A DNA stretch of 36,363 bases from Amoebidium appalachense (taxonomy: Eukaryota; Protista; Ichthyosporea), in the NCBI GenBank assembly GCA_963693365.1, contig CAVNZM010000040.1, forward strand, positions 1-36,363, given 5' to 3'. Under the pieces are notes generated by a model, which saw only the letters and a program-made list of their open reading frames with translations, was not told the origin of the DNA and did no database searches. Shown here one piece after another: positions 4,471 to 36,363 of the stretch. How positions within the stretch are numbered: position 1 is the stretch's first letter; each line of letters opens with the position of its first letter. Made by a program: the position numbers and the translations under genes.

Positions 4471-17794
<13,324 letters not shown>

Positions 17795-17809
17795 CATCAG
17801 CAATCTTGT
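17795..17809 (+). repeat. Left TIR CATCAGCAATCTTGT
   Basis: Exact reverse complement of 35955-35969. Confidence 0.92.
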
Positions 17810-18600
17810 CGAATCCATCCATAAGCCATCTAAGACGTCAGCATCTAATCAAAGTCATCTACATCCCACCCTTTAACCCTATCTACCCCATATCCCATCG
17901 AAAAGATGTCAGGATATTTTCGGACCATTTAAAGACGACTTTCAAGTTATCATAAAGATGTCTGGAAATTTCCTGACATCTTTATATACATTTTTCCTGA
18001 CATCGTTTTCTACACCTAAACCTAACCACTACCCATCCGTAACCCCCCCCAATCCCCACCTTTTCTACCCCTAAAATATAGGTATCGTAAGATCCTGCAC
18101 ATCAAGACCCTTTTATGTCATCTTTAAGGCCACTTTAAAGAGCTCAAATAAGAAATTAAGGCAACAAACAGACATCTAAACGATATCGTTAAAGGGACAT
18201 GATGTACATTACCTTATTGCAACGAGAGGTGATTTAGAGGTCTTCATGTTGACTTCTCTGCATCTAAAACGGCACATAAGGAGAACTAAATGTTGCCTTT
18301 AAAGTATCTCGGGGCATCGGAATCCTTATTTCACGATGCCTTTATGTCATCAAACGGATCTGTTGCCGACCATACAAAGATACCTTTTGGATCACTCTAC
18401 ATGATCTTTATTTCATGCACACCGATTCACGACATACACATGTCACCTTTATGTTTACTTTGTGACAACTTGTGCAGCATAATAAGTCGACAAAACGATC
18501 ACTACAAGCAATTTAATATGATCATTATACTGTATTCTAATCGTCCAAAAATCTATATTAAAGCATCATTTTGTGCCCCGGTTGATGCCAAGATGATGTC
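17810..18600. repeat. Left subterminal region of the Plavaka element
   Basis: Non-coding, AT-richer, dense in GACATC/GATGTC-like motifs; CCATCTAAGACGTC resembles CCATCTATGACGTC in the right subterminal region. Confidence 0.55.
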
Positions 18601-18702
18601 AGTTCCCCCCAGTTTCCCCCCCCCCCCCCCCCCTTCCCTTTCCTCCCCGTGGCTGCACAGTGAAGTGTCGTTGACCGTGCTGAACAATCTTTAATTTCTT
18701 AT

Positions 18703-18762
18703 GACACGTCCCACTGGGACGTGTCTCCACTCTTTACATCTACGGGATGTCCCACTGGGACA
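18703..18762. repeat. Two palindromes GACACGTCCCACTGGGACGTGTC and TGTCCCACTGGGACA
   Basis: Direct reading; located downstream of the JmjC stop codon. Confidence 0.8.
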
Positions 18763-18949
18763 CCCCTCTACTGTCTCAACTATTCAAAACATTAAAATTC
18801 AAGAAAAGAAACACTATAAATTTATGAGAAAAAAACAAAACTAAACAAAGTAAACAAACTTGCAAAATAAAATCCAAAATAATCCCCTACAAAAAAGGGG
18901 CAGTACATTTCTTGGGGGGAAGGGGGAGGGGGGGGGGGGAGGTGGGGGG

Positions 18950-19743
18950 CTAAGGGGTGAATTTGGGCTTTTTGTGGGGGCTGGCATGACCCTGTTGGCG
19001 CCTTCTCTTCATCGCCGACCTGGTAAGGGGGGTCTCTCCCTCAGCCTCGTTGAACTCAGCCGGAGAGTCCTCACCTTGAAACTCAGCCGCCTCCTCCTCC
19101 ACCCCCTCCACCTGCTGCACGGCCTCGCTGTCACCCTCCGTGCCGCCCACAGCGACATCCTCGCCCTCCTTGCCGACCTTGGCCGCGTCCGTCTCGTTTT
19201 CACGTTGGTCCACCTTGGGGTCTGGGGCCTCCTTGTGCAGAGACGCGGCCTCCTTAGCGGCCTGCTCCTCCCGCTCCCGCTCCGCCAGTGCCTCTGCCTC
19301 CCTCTCCGCATCGGCCTCCTCCTGCTGCCTGCGCAACTCCTCCCCGGCCTCCCGCTCGGCTGTCACCATCTGGTCCTTCACGTAGTTGTCGTAGTTTGAG
19401 ATGTACTGCAGGTAATGGCGGGCACAGAGTCAGATGCTTTACAGAAGTCAGTCTAGAAAACTTTTTCCAACGATGTGATTGTGTTGTTTGTGTTTTTTTT
19501 TTATGGGGGGGGGGGGGGGGGGGGGTTTGCAGATGTGAACAAAGAAGTCTTTTATAAAACAGAACAGACTAAATGCTAACTAGCTCGAGTGTCGGCACGC
19601 TATAGTGTAGTCAGCCATAATCACACCATAAGGGGGGGGGGGGGGGGGGAGGGTAGGAATTATAATGAACTTAGCGTAAGTCTCGTGAGCCATGATGAAA
19701 CACCCCACAGCTCAAGTGTCAGCATCCTATTGCCTAGCCAAAA

Positions 19744-19776
<33 letters not shown>

Positions 19777-21183
19777 CCACCAACTTGATGTTGCCTTCGG
19801 CCGCAGCACCGTCATAGTTGGGGTCGTCACATTCGAATTTCACGGGGGTCCACTTGTTGATGAGCTTGTGTTGGTTGGGGTCTCGCAGCGACACCTCGAA
19901 GCAGTTGACGACCAGCCGGAAGAATGCCCTGTGGTCTCTGGCGATATCCTGCCCAGTGCTTCTTTAGTGATCTGTTTTCAAAAGAGGTAAAGTTCGGAAG
20001 GAATACACATAAGGAAGAGAAGAGAAGAGACAGATAATGTTGTCGTCATATGGTCTTACTGACATCCAATGGATGTCATTAGGATCATATGACGACAACA
20101 TTATGGCCCTTCATGATGTAAGAATGTGACCGTAATTCTCTATGATGATGCTTAAAACTGTCTTTATTCTTGAAATATTCCAAGCATTTGCAGACCTAGG
20201 AATATGCATCAATTTTTTTTCGATTCGATTCGTGGAATGTTCATGGTGGAGGGGAGCGGGGGGGGGGGGGGGGGGGGGGGGGGGGAAAGAAAGCGTTATG
20301 CAAGTAAATATATACGATGAAAGCAAGTTATTTGGGAAGTTAAACCGGTGATCAGAGGAGAACGTGGAAGGGTGAAAGGGAGTGTGTGTGTGTGTATGTG
20401 TGTGTACACACGTGTGTTGGTTGAAGAGCGAGTATGTGTGAGTGGGTGGTGGGCAGGAGGGAAGGGGGGGGGGGGGGGGGGGGGTCCTTTGATGTAGTCT
20501 AGACTCAGAATGTGTTGAAAGTGATTTGTTGGGGACATTACATACCAAGGCAGTCTTGTTGCCAAGGACAAGCCGCACAGCCTTCAATGAGATGCTGCTG
20601 AACAGGCGGGAAAACGGCTGGTACCCGAACGGGTTGCCCGTTTCAGGGTCGACAGAGTACACGCGGCCGCACGGCTGGCCATTCAGCTTGACCTCATCCA
20701 GGAGGGCCAGCCACAGCGCTGGTCGCTCATCGGCAGTTGGGGCGTAGGCGACCAGCTGTGAATGTGTGTTTGAATGCAGCAAAAGAAAGGAAACAGAAGC
20801 GAGTGGTGGTGAAGCAGGTGGCGGTGGCGTTGTGGGGGGGGGGGGGGGGGGAGGAGGGGGCGGGGGGGGGGGGGGGGGGGTTAGTCCATGATTGTGTATT
20901 ACAGAAGACTGTCAATAAAATATTATATAAATACAATGAAAAGAAAGTATTATTACTACATTACTACTTGAAACAGCTACATATCTCCATCCCTGTACAA
21001 ATGACGTTAATGGCATACAAGTAGATTAGAACAAAACAGCTACATATCTCCATCCCTGTACAAATGACGTTAATGGCATACAAGTAGATTAGAACAAAGT
21101 AACCTGTGTGCTAGGATGCGTGTGAGAAGAGTTAAGCCCATTGTCATAGAAGGAGTCCGTTGAGTACGGAGGCGGGGGACGCG

Positions 21184-21215
<32 letters not shown>

Positions 21216-24130
21216 ATACATCGAGATTGGTCCCAGGTACAACGTACCCAGTCCTCAGGAAGTTGCGGACGTGCTGGTGGACATTGGACTTGATGGAGGT
21301 GATGCCCGTGCGGATTTTGGAGATATACTTCTGTGCGGGATCGCTACGCACACAGTTGCGGATGATGTGGACCCACTTGGCCACGGCCTCCTGATTCAGC
21401 TTCGCGCTTGACGTCTCGACTTTCTGAAGAACCTCGACGAACTTTCCAGCCAGGTCCCCATCGTGGGCGTTGTTGATCTGGGGTGACTCCAGCACAAGGT
21501 GCTGGTAGATGTTGTGGGTCTTGGAGGACTTTTCCACATAGTCATTCTGACGGTGATGGAAAATGTTAGAAAACAAGAATGACGATGTGAATAAATCTTG
21601 ATGGAGCTATAAATCCTCCATGCTGGAAACGTGCTGTAGCAGTTGCTTTGAAATGACCAAGTTTGAATAGTTCCTTCAGTTTATCCACTTAGACAGAATA
21701 AGGGTGTGGATGTAGTAGGGATGGGTTTAGTGCGGGTAGGGGGGGATGAATGCATTAGGAGGTGGCAGCATGAGGTGGTGGGATGGCAACAATTCCTCCA
21801 CAAGGATGAGCTTTGATCACAGAGATTGGTGGGGGGAGGGTTGTTTGAAACATAACTACTACAATAGGTAAGAGAAACAAAATCAAAACGAAACCAAGGG
21901 AGGGATAGGTTGCCTACCAGGAACTGGGTGGTCTCCTGAAAGGATAATGTCTCGGGGTGTTTCTTGGAGGGGGAGGGGGTTGGGCGACGGGAAGGGGTGG
22001 TAGGGGTGCGGCCCAGCCCAGGCCCAGATGGAGACGGAGGCGGCTCTGGATCATCAAGCACTGGCAGTCTCGCCTCCTTGCCCAGGAGGGCGCGCAACTG
22101 CTCCCTCATGGCGGCGCGACTGTAGGAGCGGATGAGCTTTCGCATCCTCTGGTTGGTGTAGGTTGGGTGCTTGCCCGACAACACCAGTGTGTAAAAAAGG
22201 ACCTCGAGCTGATCCTCGCGGTTGTAGGGGCATTCATCCTCGTCGTTGAAGTTGTTCTCGTCATCTTCCTGGACTTCTGTGACTGAAGAATAGTAGGACT
22301 AATGTTAGTACAATTGTTGGAATCGTAGAAAACTAACAGAAGTGCGGAAACAGGGCAACCCTGGCAACAGATAGTATTTTCCGGCATGATCCAGATAACT
22401 ATTGGAGGTCATCATATGACCCAAAACACCACCGAATCCCCCCCTTTCCCAACCATTTCTACACCAAAAATGATCTATCGTATGGATATCCCCATCAACA
22501 TATCGTGGGTGAAGGCAGAGGTTTCGAAAACACAAAAGAACTAGTTGACGTGGACAGGCGAGTGGGGGGAGCGAGTAAACCACACTAGCAGCAGGTGTGT
22601 TTAGAAAGAGTGGAGTGGGTGAAGGGAGAGTATATAAACGGAGGGGGAGGGGGGGGGGGGGGGGGGGAGGGTTGAATGCAGTCAACAGAACAAAAGTACA
22701 AATACAACGGGGAGTGTGGGTGGGTGAGTGGGGGGGGGGGGGGGGGGGGGGTTTGACCAATAGCAACGGGTATGTTTTCCTGTGTAACTGACTGGAATCC
22801 CGCTATCATGTTCTCCACACTAGGCAAGAAGTGTTCCCGACACTCGCACGTGGGATACAGCGCAAGCTGGTCGATCCAGAGAAAAGTTGCGGTGTTCACT
22901 GCTAGCGCAATGTTCGGGCCAACCTGAAAGCCATAGTGAAGCGCTCCAGGTGTGGTTTGTACCAAGTCGCCGGCGCGCTGTACGACTATGACAGGTGCCA
23001 ACCCTATGGATGCAAGGTAACGCGGAGACCGAGGGATATAATTTTTGTGCTGAAGTGGGTTTCTGCACGAGCCTGGCAATTCGTTGCGGGCCAGCTGTAA
23101 GAGCCGTTTGTACTGGGAGGGAGGGTGGATAAACCACACCTTAAGGCCCCACAAAAGAAGGCTTGCTGAGGCCAGCGCGGCATCTTCAATGTGTGCACCA
23201 AACACTGTTAAACCCAAGACAGACAACTGCGCGTACAACATGGCAACATTGATTCCTGGCATTGTTTCCCCGAAATGATTTCTTCCCAACGGCGTGAAGT
23301 CACTGATTGCAGTTACATTGAAAATGCGTTCGTCGAATATTTGATCACCATCCACCTCGACATCGGATGCATAGACACCACCAACACCTTCGAGGTTTTC
23401 CTCAAACAACTGCGCTATCTGCTCACTGCTCATTTCACCCAAACCACTAACATCTTGAGGCAACGTTTGACACTTGGAAAGGTCCACGCTGACAGGCTCC
23501 CGGCTTATCTCGCACCATGACTCGGACACGCGAGTTACTGTTTGCCTACACGCTTGCTCTTTTATCTCTTTGGTCGAAAACTGTTCCATCGCATCACGAA
23601 AAGGAACAGGAGGTGCAAACCCCTCTAATAAACAACAGCCCTCCCGTTTCTCTTCAGCACTGTGCAGGGCACGAAGTGCCTTTAAAGCCTTTTCCCTATC
23701 CATGAAAGACGAAGCGCAATGTTGTTTTTATGTTTGAAGATTTTAAAAGTTTTTGATGTTACAGTGAGAAAGCCTAGGTGAAACTGACAACGAGCACACG
23801 CGTAACGACTATTTATGCAGCAGGGGGTGTAAAACACAAACACAACCCACCTTTCCTCTTCGGCTGCAGCATGGCGAGGGCGGCCGGGGCCGTAACTGAG
23901 GTGATGCCTTTGAGGAGAATGCCGACTGACTGCCCAGTAGGGCTATCAGCCTTGCTGGGATTCTCCCTGCCCCTACCCCCGGCCTTGCTATCCTTGCCGC
24001 CCTTGCCGCCCTTGCCGCCCTTGCTGGCGGCCACGGGCTCGCTGCAGTCCGAGTCGTCGAACGGCGTCTCAACCTTTTTGCGCTTGGGAAGCTTGGTCGT
24101 TGTGGCGCCCATTTTCGCGGTCTTTGGCAT
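18950..24130 (-). CDS. KDM4/JMJD2-like JmjC-domain protein (putative histone lysine demethylase), about 890 aa, transposon cargo
   Basis: Exons 24130-23851, ~23624-22758, 22282-21918, 21546-21220, 20755-20546, 19948-19781, 19405-18950 splice in phase (exon 2 boundaries least certain). The JmjC core MPGINVAMLY..FGAHIED..LKVWF..CRNPLQHK..QRAGDLVQTTPGALHYGFQVGPNIALAVN..CECR has the HxE...H Fe(II) triad, the 2OG-binding Lys and the KDM4-type Cys/His/CxC zinc site. Basic N-terminus and acidic coiled C-terminus ending in KKPKF. Confidence 0.85.
20034..20104. repeat. 71-bp near-perfect inverted repeat (hairpin) in a JmjC intron
   Basis: 19-bp perfect outer stem ATAATGTTGTCGTCATATG/CATATGACGACAACATTAT and 9-bp inner stem TGACATCCA/TGGATGTCA. 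Confidence 0.9.
20971..21098. repeat. 63-bp tandem duplication in a JmjC intron
   Basis: AAACAGCTACATATCTCC...GTAGATTAGAACAAA occurs twice. Confidence 0.9.
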
Positions 24131-25551
24131 GGTGGAGACGTGGAAGGCGTAAGCGCGAGACAGAGCGATGACGATATGTGGTCATATGGACCACAAAGAT
24201 GTGTTATGTGGGGTTTCTGTTGCAGTTCCGGTTGGGAAATGGATTGCAATCCTATGCCCATGAAAAACTTTTAATTGGTTGATCATCGCATAAGCTGAAG
24301 CTAATCAAACGCGTAACCCAATCACAGACGGCGAAAACATATGATATGTTTCCCCCCACACCTCCTGCAATTTGCTGAGGTTGGACCCTGGTCATCAAGA
24401 CTTCTTGGCCATAAAATGACAATACAATTACAGCAAAACATTCTGCAGAAACCCGATATTCTCACATTTTAAGTGTTTATAAAAAGCCTTAGTTTCAAGT
24501 AGAGGCATTTTTTTTCTTGCTTTGTGTCGACGACATCTTTTATCCGCTTGAAATTTGTCAGCACCCATAATTCTACTATTACAGTACGTTGTATGTGGGG
24601 ATCACCATCCGTCTTTCCTGTTTTAACTCGCGCTGAGGCAGAAGTTATAAGAAGCAGACGTGGAAAACTCAGCATAAGAGATCAATGAAATGAACATAAA
24701 TATTAAATTACCAGACAATTTAAAGTGCAAATTTTCTAGTAATTTCTAACGTCCATTACGAAAGAAAATAACCAACTTTTGACTTGCACCTGTTTTCCCT
24801 GCCGCGCTCAGGTATGTGGGTCTATCGGATGGGAAGGTGTGGACCTGACATTGAGCTTATCGAGTGGCCGCAGGGAGAATGAGCAATTAATATGATACTA
24901 TTGGAATATTAATAGTTGAACTCTTCTGCATTTTTTATTGTTTTTTTTTTTTTTTTACACTGTCCACATTTATTGACACTTATATAAGGACCGAACGATT
25001 AGGTAGGCTATGCCAGTGGATTCCCATGTTTACGAAGTGCGCGCGCTGCCTAGAGTGGCCACATGTATGCATGACAGATCACCAATGATATTTGCAACGC
25101 ACGCAAACCAAACAACATACAGGTCGTTGAAATCTCCACGGTTGTTCTAATAACACATTCAGCTTGTATATTTACTTTGAAGTTTGTTATTTTTTATGTC
25201 AATGAAATATGGGCATGCGCACCTAGTAGCATCAGTGTTGGACGAAGCAACGCAGCAAGATAGAGTTTATGCCATAGCAGACCAATCGCCGCATTGGAAC
25301 TATCCGAGTACGTGATAAATGTCCAATCACCACGATTAGGATAATTGGACATCTTCATGTTGTAGGAAACACCACCCGGGGGTCAACGCGGACTCCACGA
25401 CATCAGGCAAGGGACATCATGATCAACACAACCCATCCACATCCCAGCTGGACGCACACGAGAGATCTATCTGTACTATAAAATATATATGTATATACAC
25501 TGTTTTGATAAACTTTGTGTATGCACGTGATGTGCGGTAAAGCGCGTCAAA
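24131..25551. promoter_or_regulatory. Divergent promoter region between the JmjC and transposase genes
   Basis: Head-to-head starts; CCAAT/ATTGG boxes near 24275-24325 and 25280-25350; TATAAAA at ~25477. Confidence 0.45.
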
Positions 25552-31988
<6,437 letters not shown>

Positions 31989-33021
31989 AGGTAGCAATGG
32001 GTGAGGCTATGCAAATTGTCGTACCCTTAAAAGATGCCTTTATGGGGACTTTTAGACTACATTTTCCTTTTTTCCCATCTCGATCACCCCCACATCCGAA
32101 CCTTTCGGATATCTTTATGAGATCTGTTTGACAATATGTTGATGTCTGAATCGAGTGCATAATTTTTGTTTTCGGCTTGGATTCACTTAATAATGCCAAT
32201 CGTTGCCGCATCTATATGTATCTGTGGACCCTCTAGTGGCCACATCAGCTAACAAATAACGGAAAGGGTTGTGGCCATTAGTATATCTAGTAACAATGCT
32301 GACAGTTACCGTAAGCCTGCCCGCCCACATGGGCCCGTATGGACAACTAAATGACGACTTAGTGGCGGGTTTATGATGTCTCGGACGATGGAATTTGTGC
32401 ACGCGCACGTGCACCAAGTCTGTGACACAAGGGTGTTGTTCCTCTGCCATATCTGATACGACTTCTTTCATGAATCATTCATTTATGCAACAATATTATT
32501 ATCTGTTATAAATTATATCAAAATATATCTTTACAACCAAGGTTGTTGGTAATTATCTACACTAGCCATATGGGTGGAATGGCTGGCTCCCTTCATTTGC
32601 ACGCCTCTGTCTGGCAACCTTTAAATGAATAATATAGGCGTGTTTTATCAAAGTATTACTTTTATAAATCTTATAATTTTCAGCTGTTAATTCCTGAGCC
32701 AGTTCTACCACATTAAAGCGTGATCAAAATCAATTTTGCGGTCTCCCGGCAAGGATGGTGGTCTGCTTTGCACGCCTCCAGAAAAATTATGTGATCCAAT
32801 CACATGACGCGAAATCCTATCTCTCAAATCCGTGAATATTCATTGGCTTTCATTCCACGCCGCGCACCGCCCGGAGCGGCGCGCGGCGCGCGGAGTCGAT
32901 CACACTGTGGAAACCATATCATCAGTCAGTCAGTCAGTAGGTTTGCATATGCTCACGGCCACACATGCACAGTAGCTTTTTGCTGCCTGGCATACTGCTA
33001 TCCACCAATGATTGAACAAAA

Positions 33022-34185
33022 ATGGCGGCCCGAAACGTTGCTGTAAATGCACCCGCACATGCTGTTACACAGGGCTCACCATTTACCTCAGAAATGGTGA
33101 CTGCATACGTTAACTTTTACGTTGAACACCATGGTGAATACGTGGCATGTGACGAGGGTTCTAGGCACCCCGCGGGCTTCTGCGCCCTTTGTAATAAACA
33201 GGGCATCCGTGTTCTCTCTCAACACCTTATTGACGCCCACCGAGATACAATTCGCCATTACACTGGCTACGAAATAGGCATGCTGCTGCAGACCCATCGC
33301 GTTCCTAAGGCTGAGCATGCACTAGTGTGGGCCGTGAGCGATGATTCAGAATATGAACGCGCTACATGGATTGCTTACCGCAAGCGAAAAAACCAGACTG
33401 CATACCGCAAAACCGACAAGGGGAGGCGTACAAACCGCAGTCTACAACTGCTGAAACGGCAAGTGCTCAACGCCTGGGCCTTCCACACTGGCGCCATGGA
33501 CGGTATTGGCGGGAACATAACACAGCGTATGGCCGTCGATACATACCGAATGGTCAGGGATGCTCATTTGGCAGCACAGACAGACATCTCCGCTTCGTTG
33601 AACGATGCCCAACAACGATTTATCACTGCATTCGCCGACCATATGGTTAGGCTCGCAAATATTGCCGTCCTTAACCGCGACACGTCGGCGGCTGTACGAC
33701 AACTCATGGTGCCAGGGGCCTGTAATTTTACATGGGAGGAAGATAAAGTTGTGGAGATATCCTTTGAAGAAGTGCGTGGTTGGCACCTTCTCCACTTCGC
33801 TACAAGCCAAAAGTACTACACGCGGATAAAAATGGAAACTGTGCTGCCCAACATTAACGCCGAGATTGACTGGTCGCACCCGGACACAAAAGCCGAGGTA
33901 AACAGGGTGTTTCAAAAAAACCTGAAAGACAGGGAGCAACAGTTGTGGACGGCAATCTACCAATATATCACAGTCAGAGCCGCCAGTGGGAATTTCCGTT
34001 ATAGCGACCCAATAGACATGGGAGAATACCTCCCTGGGCTAGTTGCAGAGATGGGCGCTTCAATGGACGACATAGAGCTTCCCTCATACCTTGCCATGTG
34101 TGGCTTCGATGAGGAAGCACAAGAGTTGTTTCTCGGACAGGCTGGGCTAGAGCCAGACGAGGAGATGGGCGAAGACGCAGAGTAA
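33022..34185 (+). CDS. Intronless 387-aa hypothetical protein with a C2H2-like zinc finger and basic segment, transposon cargo
   Basis: Long non-repetitive ORF with AAAAATGGCG start context; CALCNKQGIRVLSQHLIDAH; basic stretch YRKRKNQTAYRKTDKGRRTNR; acidic tail. Confidence 0.7.
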   Translation: MAARNVAVNAPAHAVTQGSPFTSEMVTAYVNFYVEHHGEYVACDEGSRHPAGFCALCNKQGIRVLSQHLIDAHRDTIRHYTGYEIGMLLQTHRVPKAEHALVWAVSDDSEYERATWIAYRKRKNQTAYRKTDKGRRTNRSLQLLKRQVLNAWAFHTGAMDGIGGNITQRMAVDTYRMVRDAHLAAQTDISASLNDAQQRFITAFADHMVRLANIAVLNRDTSAAVRQLMVPGACNFTWEEDKVVEISFEEVRGWHLLHFATSQKYYTRIKMETVLPNINAEIDWSHPDTKAEVNRVFQKNLKDREQQLWTAIYQYITVRAASGNFRYSDPIDMGEYLPGLVAEMGASMDDIELPSYLAMCGFDEEAQELFLGQAGLEPDEEMGEDAE

Positions 34186-34299
34186 ATTTTCTGTTTGTTG
34201 ATGAGTGGGGGTGTAGGGGGTTTGGTTTTCACGTGTGTCAGTAGCCTGTAACATATAGGCGCTGTGCCGATGTCAGAAGTTTAAGTGGACTGCAACCCA

Positions 34300-35950
34300 A
34301 CCTTTTAGGTATATATTGACATCCAAATAGTATAGGTTTACTACGAAAAAGATATCAGAACTTATCGTTATAGCATCTTTACATTCTCCTGCTGATATCA
34401 TTATATACATGTTGACATCCAAATGGTATAAGTTTATGGCTAAAAAGATATCAGAACTTATCAATATAGCATCTTTACATTCACCTGATGTCCATCTTGC
34501 GATGCTTAAAAGTGCACGGAATCGATCTAGCCTGGGTCCAAAAGATGCCTCGAACCCATCCCAGGAATCTCATGATGACCATCCAAAACACATCAAAGGG
34601 ACAATTGCAAGACACCATAATGTGCATATATAGATTCATCTTCAGACAACTAACGGCTCCTGAAAAGTGCATACAAGGACCACTTAAAGACCCTAGAGAG
34701 ATGCTGTGGACTCCATTCTAGTATGAGAATTGCATCCAGCAACATTATAGCATCTATATATGCCTATCATGTGCACCGGGTAATCCACAAACCATCTATG
34801 ACGTCGTGGATGTGGACCATCGCAAAGATCACATAGAGACCCTAACTAGATATCATAAAGTGCACATGCTGTGCCTAGAACAGGGATAAATCAGGAATGA
34901 TTATATAATATGCACCAGAAATACACTTAGACATCTGAGGGTACCTAGGGGGTACATATGGATGGGAAAAGGATAGGATATTCAGAGATCTGTAATACCA
35001 CATCATCAACACCATAGGTCCACATGTAGATGCCTTCAAGTGCACGGAATCGATCGAGCCAGGGTCAAAAAGATGTCACAAACCCATCCCAGAAACCTCA
35101 TGATGATCATCCGAAAGGCATCTAAAATACCACGTAAAGGCCATATAAGATGCAAATATGGTTTTCCCTCATGACAACTAAATGGTCCTAAAAGGTTCAT
35201 TAACAGACCACTTAAAGACGTCAAAAAGATGCTGTATACCAGGAATAGCGTCCAGCAACATTAAAGCAACCATATATGCCTATCATGTGCACCACCCAAT
35301 CCACATACCATCTATGACGTCGTGGATGAGGTCCATCTACAAGAGCACATACAGACACTTTGTCGATCATCAAAAGTGCATATGTTGTGCATATAACAGC
35401 GAAAAAACAATATGGATCGTATAAAATGCACTAAAACTAGTCTTGGACATCATAGGGGACTTAGGGGGTAGAAATGGATGGGAAGAAAATATGATCATAT
35501 AAAGTGGTCCATATAATGTCTATGTGCACCGGAAATAAACTAGAAGTACACTTGGACGTCCTGGAGTACTTAGGGTGTACTTTGGGATGGGTACAAGAAA
35601 AGAGCATTTAATGTGGGCTTTAGATGGTCCATATCACCACCCAAACCCCACCAAATTGTGTTTGGAAAATTTTGAACATCGGGGCATTTAATATGCATTT
35701 AGGATGGGTTGTAGATCATTTCATGACACCATTGTAGATGCCTTGCGGTGCTGTTCTGGATGATGGATGATATCAAGTCCCCTTTATCCCCTCCTGGACA
35801 TCATAGATGAGTTATGGATAGTGGCCATCCAAATTGTTTACGACCCCCACATCCCATCTAGATGTCATCATGTAGGTAGGTTGTGGTGGATGTGTGGGGT
35901 GGATATGGTGGGAGGACCCCCAAAAGGTGTCCTGGATGGGATCCGGATCG
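34300..35950. repeat. Right subterminal repeat region of the Plavaka element
   Basis: 95-bp-period duplication (34316-34387 vs 34411-34482); degenerate ~530-bp duplication starting AAGTGCACGGAATCGATC (~34510 and ~35038); many GACATC/GATGTC-like motifs. Confidence 0.7.
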
Positions 35951-35954
35951 CCGA

Positions 35955-35969
35955 ACAAGATTGCTGATG
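35955..35969 (-). repeat. Right TIR
   Basis: Exact reverse complement of 17795-17809. Confidence 0.92.
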
Positions 35970-35971
35970 TG

Positions 35972-36363
35972 CCCGCCGAATAGAGCGGTGTTGTCGCTTT
36001 GCGCTGGAACGGGTTCGGTAATGGAGGCTGCCGCGATGGAACGGCGTCATGTAGTTGGCTTCGAGATCGTGGAGCGATTGTGTGAAGCTATTACAAAGCG
36101 GTTGGCAGTGGCCGAAATCCACAGCCAGGTCTACCATGCGGTCATCGAGAAAAGGCGAGAACTGCTACCCCTGTATTCCACGGAGCTTGGTATGGCCGAG
36201 CCAAGTATGGAAGCTGAAATCGTGAAGGAGAAACTTCTCAAGACAGCAAATTCGGAGACAGACGGCTGGCTGTTTGGATGCGGAAGTATGAATACCGACG
36301 GCACCTGGGGCAACATGAACAGCAGCCCAGTTGTGTCGGGTCCCAGCAAAGCAAGAATCATCG
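35972..36363 (+). CDS. 3' continuation of the ParB-methyltransferase gene: SAM-binding motif I region (not in the ORF track); runs off the right edge
   Basis: Open frame CPPNRAVLSLCAGTGSVMEAAAMERRHVVGFEIVERLCEAITKRL... matches the VLDxFxGxGS...R..iG.Ei pattern. It joins 17794 in frame once the insertion and one TG are removed. Confidence 0.85.

Follow-up and report, generated by a model that had tools for sequence, protein, structure and literature searches.

The window analysed here is a stretch of 36,363 nucleotides (contig CAVNZM010000040.1, positions 1 to 36,363, forward strand), and positions 17795-35969 of it hold an 18.2-kb DNA transposon of the Plavaka group, in which a gene for a predicted KDM4-like histone demethylase of the JmjC type lies alongside a transposase and two further open reading frames (ORF3 and ORF4). 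The similarity of its 15-bp inverted ends stops at these two positions in self-BLAST. For comparison, contigs of the public runs X3, X5, X9 and X18 (4 of the 24 runs listed) were set against window part 17340-27800, where the runs with small shares, X16-X20, were represented by X18. The features of the locus are the following:

17793..17794: left copy of the target-site duplication (TSD), TG, of which just one TG stands where X9 and X18 contigs show the empty site
17795..17809, plus strand: left terminal inverted repeat (TIR), 15 bp, starting with CATCA (PlavakaB type), an exact inverted match and the start of an X3 contig
17810..18620: subterminal region on the left side, containing an imperfect hairpin (17902-17985, self-BLAST)
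18950..24130, minus strand: ORF4, 584-599 amino acids with basic ends and an acidic tail, of no family, predicted as an open GT-AG model with 6-7 exons
24130-23851, 22282-21918, 21546-21271, 20755-20546, 19948-19781 and 19405-18950, minus strand: predicted ORF4 exons (A to F), GT-AG
21546-21248 plus micro-exon 21103-21082, minus strand: alternative ORF4 exon C, with two open joins to exon D
22585..23703, minus strand: KDM4-like JmjC gene, nested in ORF4 intron 1, with PF02373, KDM4 matches in PDB and a GC content at third codon positions (GC3) of 0.53
25552..31988, plus strand: Plavaka DDE transposase, 9 exons, 1043 amino acids if read past one frameshift, with PF18759 and 8 of 8 introns GT-AG
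33022..34185, plus strand: ORF3, intronless, 387 amino acids, with a relative in Amoebidium parasiticum
34310..35495: right subterminal imperfect direct repeats, 85 bp twice and about 480 bp twice, 75% identical (self-BLAST)
35955..35969, minus strand: right TIR, 15 bp, ending with TGATG, an exact inverted match to the left TIR
35970..35971: right copy of the TSD, TG, read from the sequence
4471..36363, plus strand: interrupted gene, outside the element, 14 exons with the last one split at 17794/35972, at least 1211 amino acids in an open spliced model

An earlier sequence-only reading of this DNA had claimed exact TIRs and a TG TSD, and both were borne out by the 15-bp inverted pair, by the TG on both sides and by empty sites with a single TG. 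Chance would give roughly 0.6 inverted pairs of exact 15-mers in 36 kb, so that the TIR by itself is weak evidence and contigs are needed as well. An X9 contig departs from the window after 17795 and resumes with the sequence to the right of the element, which makes it an empty site, and the same empty junction is present in three X18 records, there in converted form. The X3 contig over the left end starts exactly at 17795, as its two variants at distances of 86 and 110 letters from the contig end show; such a start would be seen if several flanks branched there, and insertions of the element at multiple sites are thereby inferred. The empty junction may stem from either an allele of the interrupted gene or a paralogue. 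When the element and one TG are removed in silico, the last exon of the interrupted gene reads open across the junction (29 residues) and the whole gene is open over at least 1211 codons, so the in-frame restoration of the host exon, also claimed earlier, agrees with the empty junction found in X9 and X18. Because of the empty junctions in the X9 and X18 contigs, together with the X3 contig that starts at the first base of the TIR, mobility is supported, and we regard this as almost certainly a real transposon, and an unusually well delimited one.

The Plavaka transposase was another claim of that reading, and the profile search suggested for it gave PF18759 above the cutoff on two exons (Pfam, E 9e-21). 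The motifs present are an N-terminal C2H2-like finger, YSD, ITD, CHQC, HFGGH and ESWERAH, and the series D, D, C(2)C, H(3)H, E is present in this order, with motifs at model residues 325-331, 430-436, 453, 687 and 705, the catalytic residues being assigned by motif. The PlavakaB group is defined by CATCA..TGATG termini and TSDs of 2-3 bp (Kojima 2025, PMC12730594). Because the element has CATCA..TGATG TIRs, a 2-bp TSD, PF18759 and a D-D-E transposase with the C(2)C and H(3)H motifs in this order, it is assigned on its sequence features to the PlavakaB cut-and-paste DNA transposons (CMCT clade). A word-indexed protein search with one transposase exon, which is of low sensitivity, found no relatives. 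In this copy the transposase has a +1 frameshift in a six-G run (27667-27672) with a stop at codon 407, and the form of the run that is shorter by one base accounts for the whole depth of both X3 and X9 and for 128 of 318 in X5. Single-base homopolymer differences between the window and the contigs of most runs were seen at 18837, 21738, 22437 and 27668, and the pattern suggests long-read assembly errors in the window, possibly with the transposase frameshift included; a copy-specific mutation is also possible for the latter. Intron 8 of the transposase has a 423-bp direct duplication (97% identical, 30108-31056), and a partial copy of the start of exon 7 is located near 29075.

The JmjC gene has an intronless catalytic core (approx. 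23703-22800), and its 3' end could either read through to the stop at 22585 or be spliced near 22757. The profile search that had been suggested for the KDM4-like claim supports it, with PF02373 at E 2e-14 and with KDM4C, D, B and A as the best solved-structure matches at E about 1e-17 (1.6e-17 to 9e-16, from a 57-sequence profile), followed by the KDM4E-type 2w2i and yeast Rph1, with KDM5 and JMJ14 far weaker (5e-9 or weaker). The AlphaFold2 (AF2) model, built from 97/151 sequences with the longest and two repetitive matches left out, has a pLDDT of 86, and in Foldseek it matches KDM4A/B with TMq 0.68-0.75 over approx. 310 columns, where all listed top matches are KDM4, although the KDM4-rich alignment behind the model biases the fold match toward KDM4. 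The iron triad H171/E173/H256 and the 2-oxoglutarate (2OG) residues Y111 and K188 are kept, as well as W190, K220 and the Cys3-His zinc site (C213, H219, C286 and C288), a structural site that is taken as specific to KDM4 enzymes. The numbering used here for N280, E287, H276, K206 and the zinc site is the usual KDM4A numbering. The core of the methyl-lysine pocket (G150, Y157, E173, S179 and N270) is also kept, KDM4A S288 is replaced by alanine, which is the commonest residue there among the matches, and 10 of the 13 mappable KDM4A pocket residues (list from PMC9036480) are identical, the three others being Y175, N198 and S288.

No PHD or Tudor reader was found by Pfam scan of the JmjC ORF or the ORF4 exons, and JmjN gave no Pfam match, yet the structural alignment covers nearly all 300 residues. 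Compared with the cores of human KDM4A-D (PDB 4xdo, 2gp5 and 4lxl), the fold over approx. 310 columns, the iron triad, the 2OG Tyr/Lys pair and the Cys3-His zinc are common to both, whereas identity is only about 24%, Pfam gives no JmjN match, PHD/Tudor domains are lacking and four pocket residues are replaced. Because it is without PHD/Tudor domains, the protein is, as far as its sequence tells, KDM4-like rather than a canonical KDM4 orthologue. Judging from the model and the kept residues, it would quite probably be a catalytically active histone-lysine demethylase.

A search of 1.84 billion representatives gave P0002 as the closest relative over the full length (about 39% identity, E 1e-34), which keeps the same ligands; it comes from a Logan contig of 2384 nt and may belong to a diverged family of this element. 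In a quick tree search, with the set taken without the Amoebidium KDM4-likes, the JmjC protein groups with P0002 (SH-aLRT 91, not starred) among long-branch KDM4-likes. The same tree has a starred clade (SH-aLRT 97) of divergent KDM4-likes with thrips names (P0006, P0083, P0090, P0091, P0092, P0101, P0105 and P0136; Frankliniella and Megalurothrips), with several proteins per species, possibly another KDM4 expansion driven by mobile elements. The word-indexed protein search with JmjC, again of low sensitivity, gave no match, and neither did the search of metagenomes, where locus L001 is an unrelated intron-bearing KDM4-like.

Three internal genes had been counted in the sequence-only reading, and the transposase, JmjC and ORF3 are indeed present, but the element has four genes, as the multi-exon ORF4 (24130 to 18950, minus strand) was missed. 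The JmjC gene has exon A of ORF4 on one side and exon B on the other, all three on one strand, and GC3 is 0.74-0.80 in the six ORF4 exons versus 0.53-0.54 in JmjC and ORF3. In X3 the ORF4 gene has an in-frame 15-nt deletion. ORF4 gave no Pfam match at the cutoff and, with exon C, no usable match in the Atlas; homology of exon A to the N-terminus of P0002 was dismissed at E 0.74. An exact 63-bp tandem duplication is present in ORF4 at 20971-21098.

Since the donor of exon A is strong (7.7) and in phase with exon B, a nested JmjC gene in ORF4 intron 1 appears a simpler reading of the sequence than a fusion. In the fusion, JmjC would be an alternative first exon spliced to ORF4 exons B-F, giving an 806-amino-acid demethylase with a targeting or oligomerising module, which would fit either function discussed below. 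The acceptor at 22282 agrees in phase with a GT at 22757, the fused frame is open, and JmjC, if left unspliced, continues for 70 codons through a poly-C stretch resembling an intron until it meets its stop; however, the donor at 22757 is below the listing threshold (4.5), versus 7.7 for the exon A donor, and exon A resembles exons B-F in its GC3 (0.80), which JmjC does not. We therefore consider the fusion possible but doubtful.

ORF3 had been described as an orphan zinc finger, a description that did not hold: a C-x2-C-x10-H-x4-H pattern is present near its N-terminus, without Pfam support, and ORF3 has a relative in Amoebidium parasiticum (P020286 of EP00123, a transcriptome-style EukProt entry; 52% identity over 213 columns, residues 164-374; one match among 3103 candidates). 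On the strength of this match, the host is probably Amoebidium. It gave no Pfam match and no usable Atlas match, and its fold model, with a pLDDT of 37, was not used. Depletion of CGC/GCG as a test of lineage gave no clear signal.

With the nested JmjC gene as the preferred reading, it can be asked whether the gene belongs to the family or to this copy only. Twelve runs, under three organism codes, contain 50% or more of the words in the JmjC stretch, one run possibly being the source of the window; no RNA run was among those listed, which says nothing about expression. Depth in the unconverted runs, with the transposase represented by its first four exons, is alike across the JmjC, ORF4 and transposase bins in X3 (216-221, 226-237 and 218-226, respectively), X9 (914-1351 versus 1177-1736) and X5 (281-482 versus 333-621), although against this it must be said that depth is not copy number and that the runs were chosen by the JmjC stretch. 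Contigs of X3 and X9 link JmjC to ORF4 exon A. Neither the window nor the differences listed for the four runs show a stop or frameshift in the JmjC core. None of the contigs in the compared runs spans from JmjC to the transposase, and of the 40 displayed contig differences 4 are in JmjC (3 conservative amino-acid changes and 1 silent), which is too few for a selection test. A nested mini-element around JmjC was dismissed, as no inverted or direct repeat of at least 9 nt is common to both flanks. Because depth is close to that of the transposase in three runs and contigs join JmjC to ORF4, we conclude that JmjC very probably travels with the Plavaka family as stable cargo and is not a one-off insert. 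The intronless core and the different codon use make it likely that JmjC was gained separately from ORF4, and it may share a source pool with the JmjC-only KDM4-likes that Amoebidium carries in its giant-virus insertions.

What this cargo does can be put as follows. The PlavakaB family would be mostly silent under CpG methylation in all contexts, and upon de-repression the element would express a minimal KDM4-type demethylase, consisting of the catalytic core only, that is probably recruited by ORF4, ORF3 or the transposase. The recruited demethylase would erase H3K9me2/3 locally on the element, and this local loss would prolong transposase expression and extend the active window. Overall, we see the chances that JmjC serves anti-silencing of the element, which is argued by analogy, as evenly balanced. 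The role has precedents, since it was proposed for viral KDM4-likes (PMC11244446) and for TET/JBP in PlavakaB (PMC12730594). VANDAL/VANC of Arabidopsis is likewise a transposon-encoded counter to silencing and so an analogue of the proposal, but VANC, which belongs to Mutator elements, acts in a sequence-specific way and its effect has been demonstrated, while the enzyme here is without a targeting domain and its effect is a proposed one. Of the earlier claim of a self-contained anti-silencing system in a multi-gene Plavaka, the multi-gene Plavaka with a KDM4-like JmjC stands on the termini, TSD, empty sites, motifs, fold and depth, whereas anti-silencing is plausible and has precedents, and nearly all CpGs of the element's high-depth form are unconverted in X18.

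This last point belongs to a group of observations that weigh against the proposed role. Compared with the window, X18 has 184 C>T and 168 G>A places and 1-3 of any other kind, and each of the six loose ends displayed for it is identical to the window once every non-CpG cytosine on one strand has been converted in silico. X18 is thus a converted library (bisulfite/EM-type), and RIP-like hypermutation was dismissed because of this match. Of the eight pieces displayed, two of low depth were left out; the other six have 32, 54, 61, 65, 52 and 31 differences versus 29, 53, 60, 64, 50 and 31 non-CpG cytosines, an excess of 8 over 79-80 CpGs, so that at most approx. 8 CpGs are converted, partly at known variants; the JmjC piece has 61 differences versus 60 non-CpG cytosines, with 22 CpGs. 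Nearly all CpGs are thus protected, also among the 47 that lie outside CGC/GCG. The 85% cut-off would hide fully converted copies in 5 of the 6 pieces; the pieces are unbroken across CpG-free gaps of at least 31 bases, which speaks against a common unmethylated form. The element, JmjC included, therefore looks silenced by CpG methylation in X18, and CpG methylation in all contexts marks silenced young transposable elements (TEs) in Amoebidium (Sarre et al. 2024, PMC11244446). Such a state speaks against self-protection of a constitutive kind, but not against a role that is transient or limited to histone marks. To the same side belong the pocket changes of JmjC, which in KDM4A numbering are Y175 to M, N198 to S, N280 to Q and E287 to L (the canonical residue is present in 48, 83, 91 and 88, respectively, of the 96 other alignment rows), the finding of no reader or DNA-binding domain in the enzyme, and the finding of no report of H3K9me on Amoebidium TEs in the literature passages searched.

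A rather unlikely explanation is that JmjC is a captured passenger, a KDM4-like gene (taken from a giant-virus insertion, or else a processed copy) that entered the ORF4 intron shortly before the expansion of the family and brings no benefit. The intronless core and its GC3 of 0.53, within ORF4 exons of 0.74-0.80, would fit such a capture, as would the CpG methylation of the element; the copies are nearly identical, so intactness may reflect youth, and Kojima (PMC12730594) describes TET/JBP transmission as "frequent but passive". On the other hand, the core is free of stops and frameshifts in the window and the listed differences of the four runs, the flanks have no boundary of a nested element, JmjC is found in runs of three organism codes, and chromatin-enzyme cargo recurs in fungal and red-algal Plavakas. 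It seems more unlikely still that the enzyme is active in another task than relieving H3K9 silencing, such as demethylation of H3K36 or of a non-histone substrate, or opening of target chromatin for insertion, even though KDM4s act on both K9 and K36 (PMC11244446), several pocket residues differ, the enzyme is placed among long-branch KDM4-likes with no starred branch and the element is DNA-methylated despite carrying JmjC; the kept pocket core and zinc site, as well as A268 as the commonest residue among the matches (61/96), argue against it. An Amoebidium giant endogenous viral element was dismissed, as Pfam scans gave no viral marker and viral structure matches were weak. Scans of viral contigs for JmjC, ORF3 and alignment A4 gave no locus, although in one of them a single stretch counted as confirmed.

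Among known systems, the PlavakaB families with TET/JBP (Kojima 2025, PMC12730594) are like this element in CATCA..TGATG, the 2-bp TSD, the motifs C(2)C and H(3-4)H placed between D and E, a large size and a 2OG-Fe oxygenase cargo proposed to counter silencing, but their cargo is a DNA dioxygenase instead of a KDM4-type histone demethylase, and their hosts are mushrooms, whereas the host here is likely an ichthyosporean. The word "JmjC" has 0 occurrences in the text and supplement of PMC12730594 as available. Sarre et al. 2024 (PMC11244446) describe JmjC-only, multi-exon KDM4-likes in viral insertions or among host genes of Amoebidium, which resemble the present case in the lack of PHD/Tudor, likely the same genus, the same anti-silencing hypothesis and all-context CpG methylation of young TEs; in contrast, here an intronless core is located in a TIR/TSD-bounded element with intron-rich genes. 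The "Plavaka giant repeats" of the same paper are tandem clusters with intron-poor genes and tyrosine recombinases. The giant Plavakas of Bostrychia (bioRxiv 10.1101/2025.02.11.637652) are similar in size (17-19 kb) and in having a transposase with three accessory genes, one of them with a 2OG oxygenase, but these genes are PAG1, PAG2 (adenine methylase and SET) and PAG3 (ParB and oxygenase), with no histone demethylase in the available text. Further papers (PMC12344493, PMC13519894 and PMC6580095) give context on the topic only.

Plavakas with chromatin cargo are thus already known (fungal TET/JBP; red-algal methyltransferase/SET), and the idea is less unprecedented than the earlier reading assumed. 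Erasers carried by transposons are on record for DNA marks (TET/JBP), and in viruses KDM4-likes have been proposed as erasers, while no published case of a KDM4-bearing DNA transposon was found in the open-access literature. If the proposal is true, a eukaryotic DNA transposon would here bring along an H3K9 eraser of its own, and this in a protist closely related to animals. To hypothesize further, and only tentatively, one mobile anti-heterochromatin module, a stripped-down KDM4, may be present in both giant viruses and transposons of Amoebidium, and this PlavakaB may be an active carrier that erases H3K9 methylation on its own copies with targeting by ORF4/ORF3. The element would add a third route, besides host-to-virus and virus-to-host, by which JmjC-only KDM4 genes could have spread in Amoebidium, a spread as yet unexplained. 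With exact ends, empty sites, an intact small enzyme and a likely culturable protist in which demethylating drugs reactivate TEs, erasure of histone silencing by a transposon is directly testable.

Regarding the interrupted gene, its C-terminus has an amino-methyltransferase-like motif (PF01555 at E 0.014, below the cutoff; PDB 8urk at E 0.009), and a GGQHT stretch may recall ParB. PF01555 and ParB domains are also carried by accessory genes of red-algal Plavakas (bioRxiv 10.1101/2025.02.11.637652), and flank depth in the run contigs is not low. Because of these features and this depth, the interrupted gene may itself be cargo of another multi-copy element, with the empty sites as its paralogues. 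Upstream of it, three imperfect units of approx. 650-800 bp (770-2750), each with an array of a 13-bp repeat (11, 5.6 and 10 copies), are possibly the subterminal array of a larger element. In its last intron, a cluster of short palindromic repeats (17505-17720) with the core CTAGGATGAC has loose ends in X9 contigs and resembles a small repeated element.

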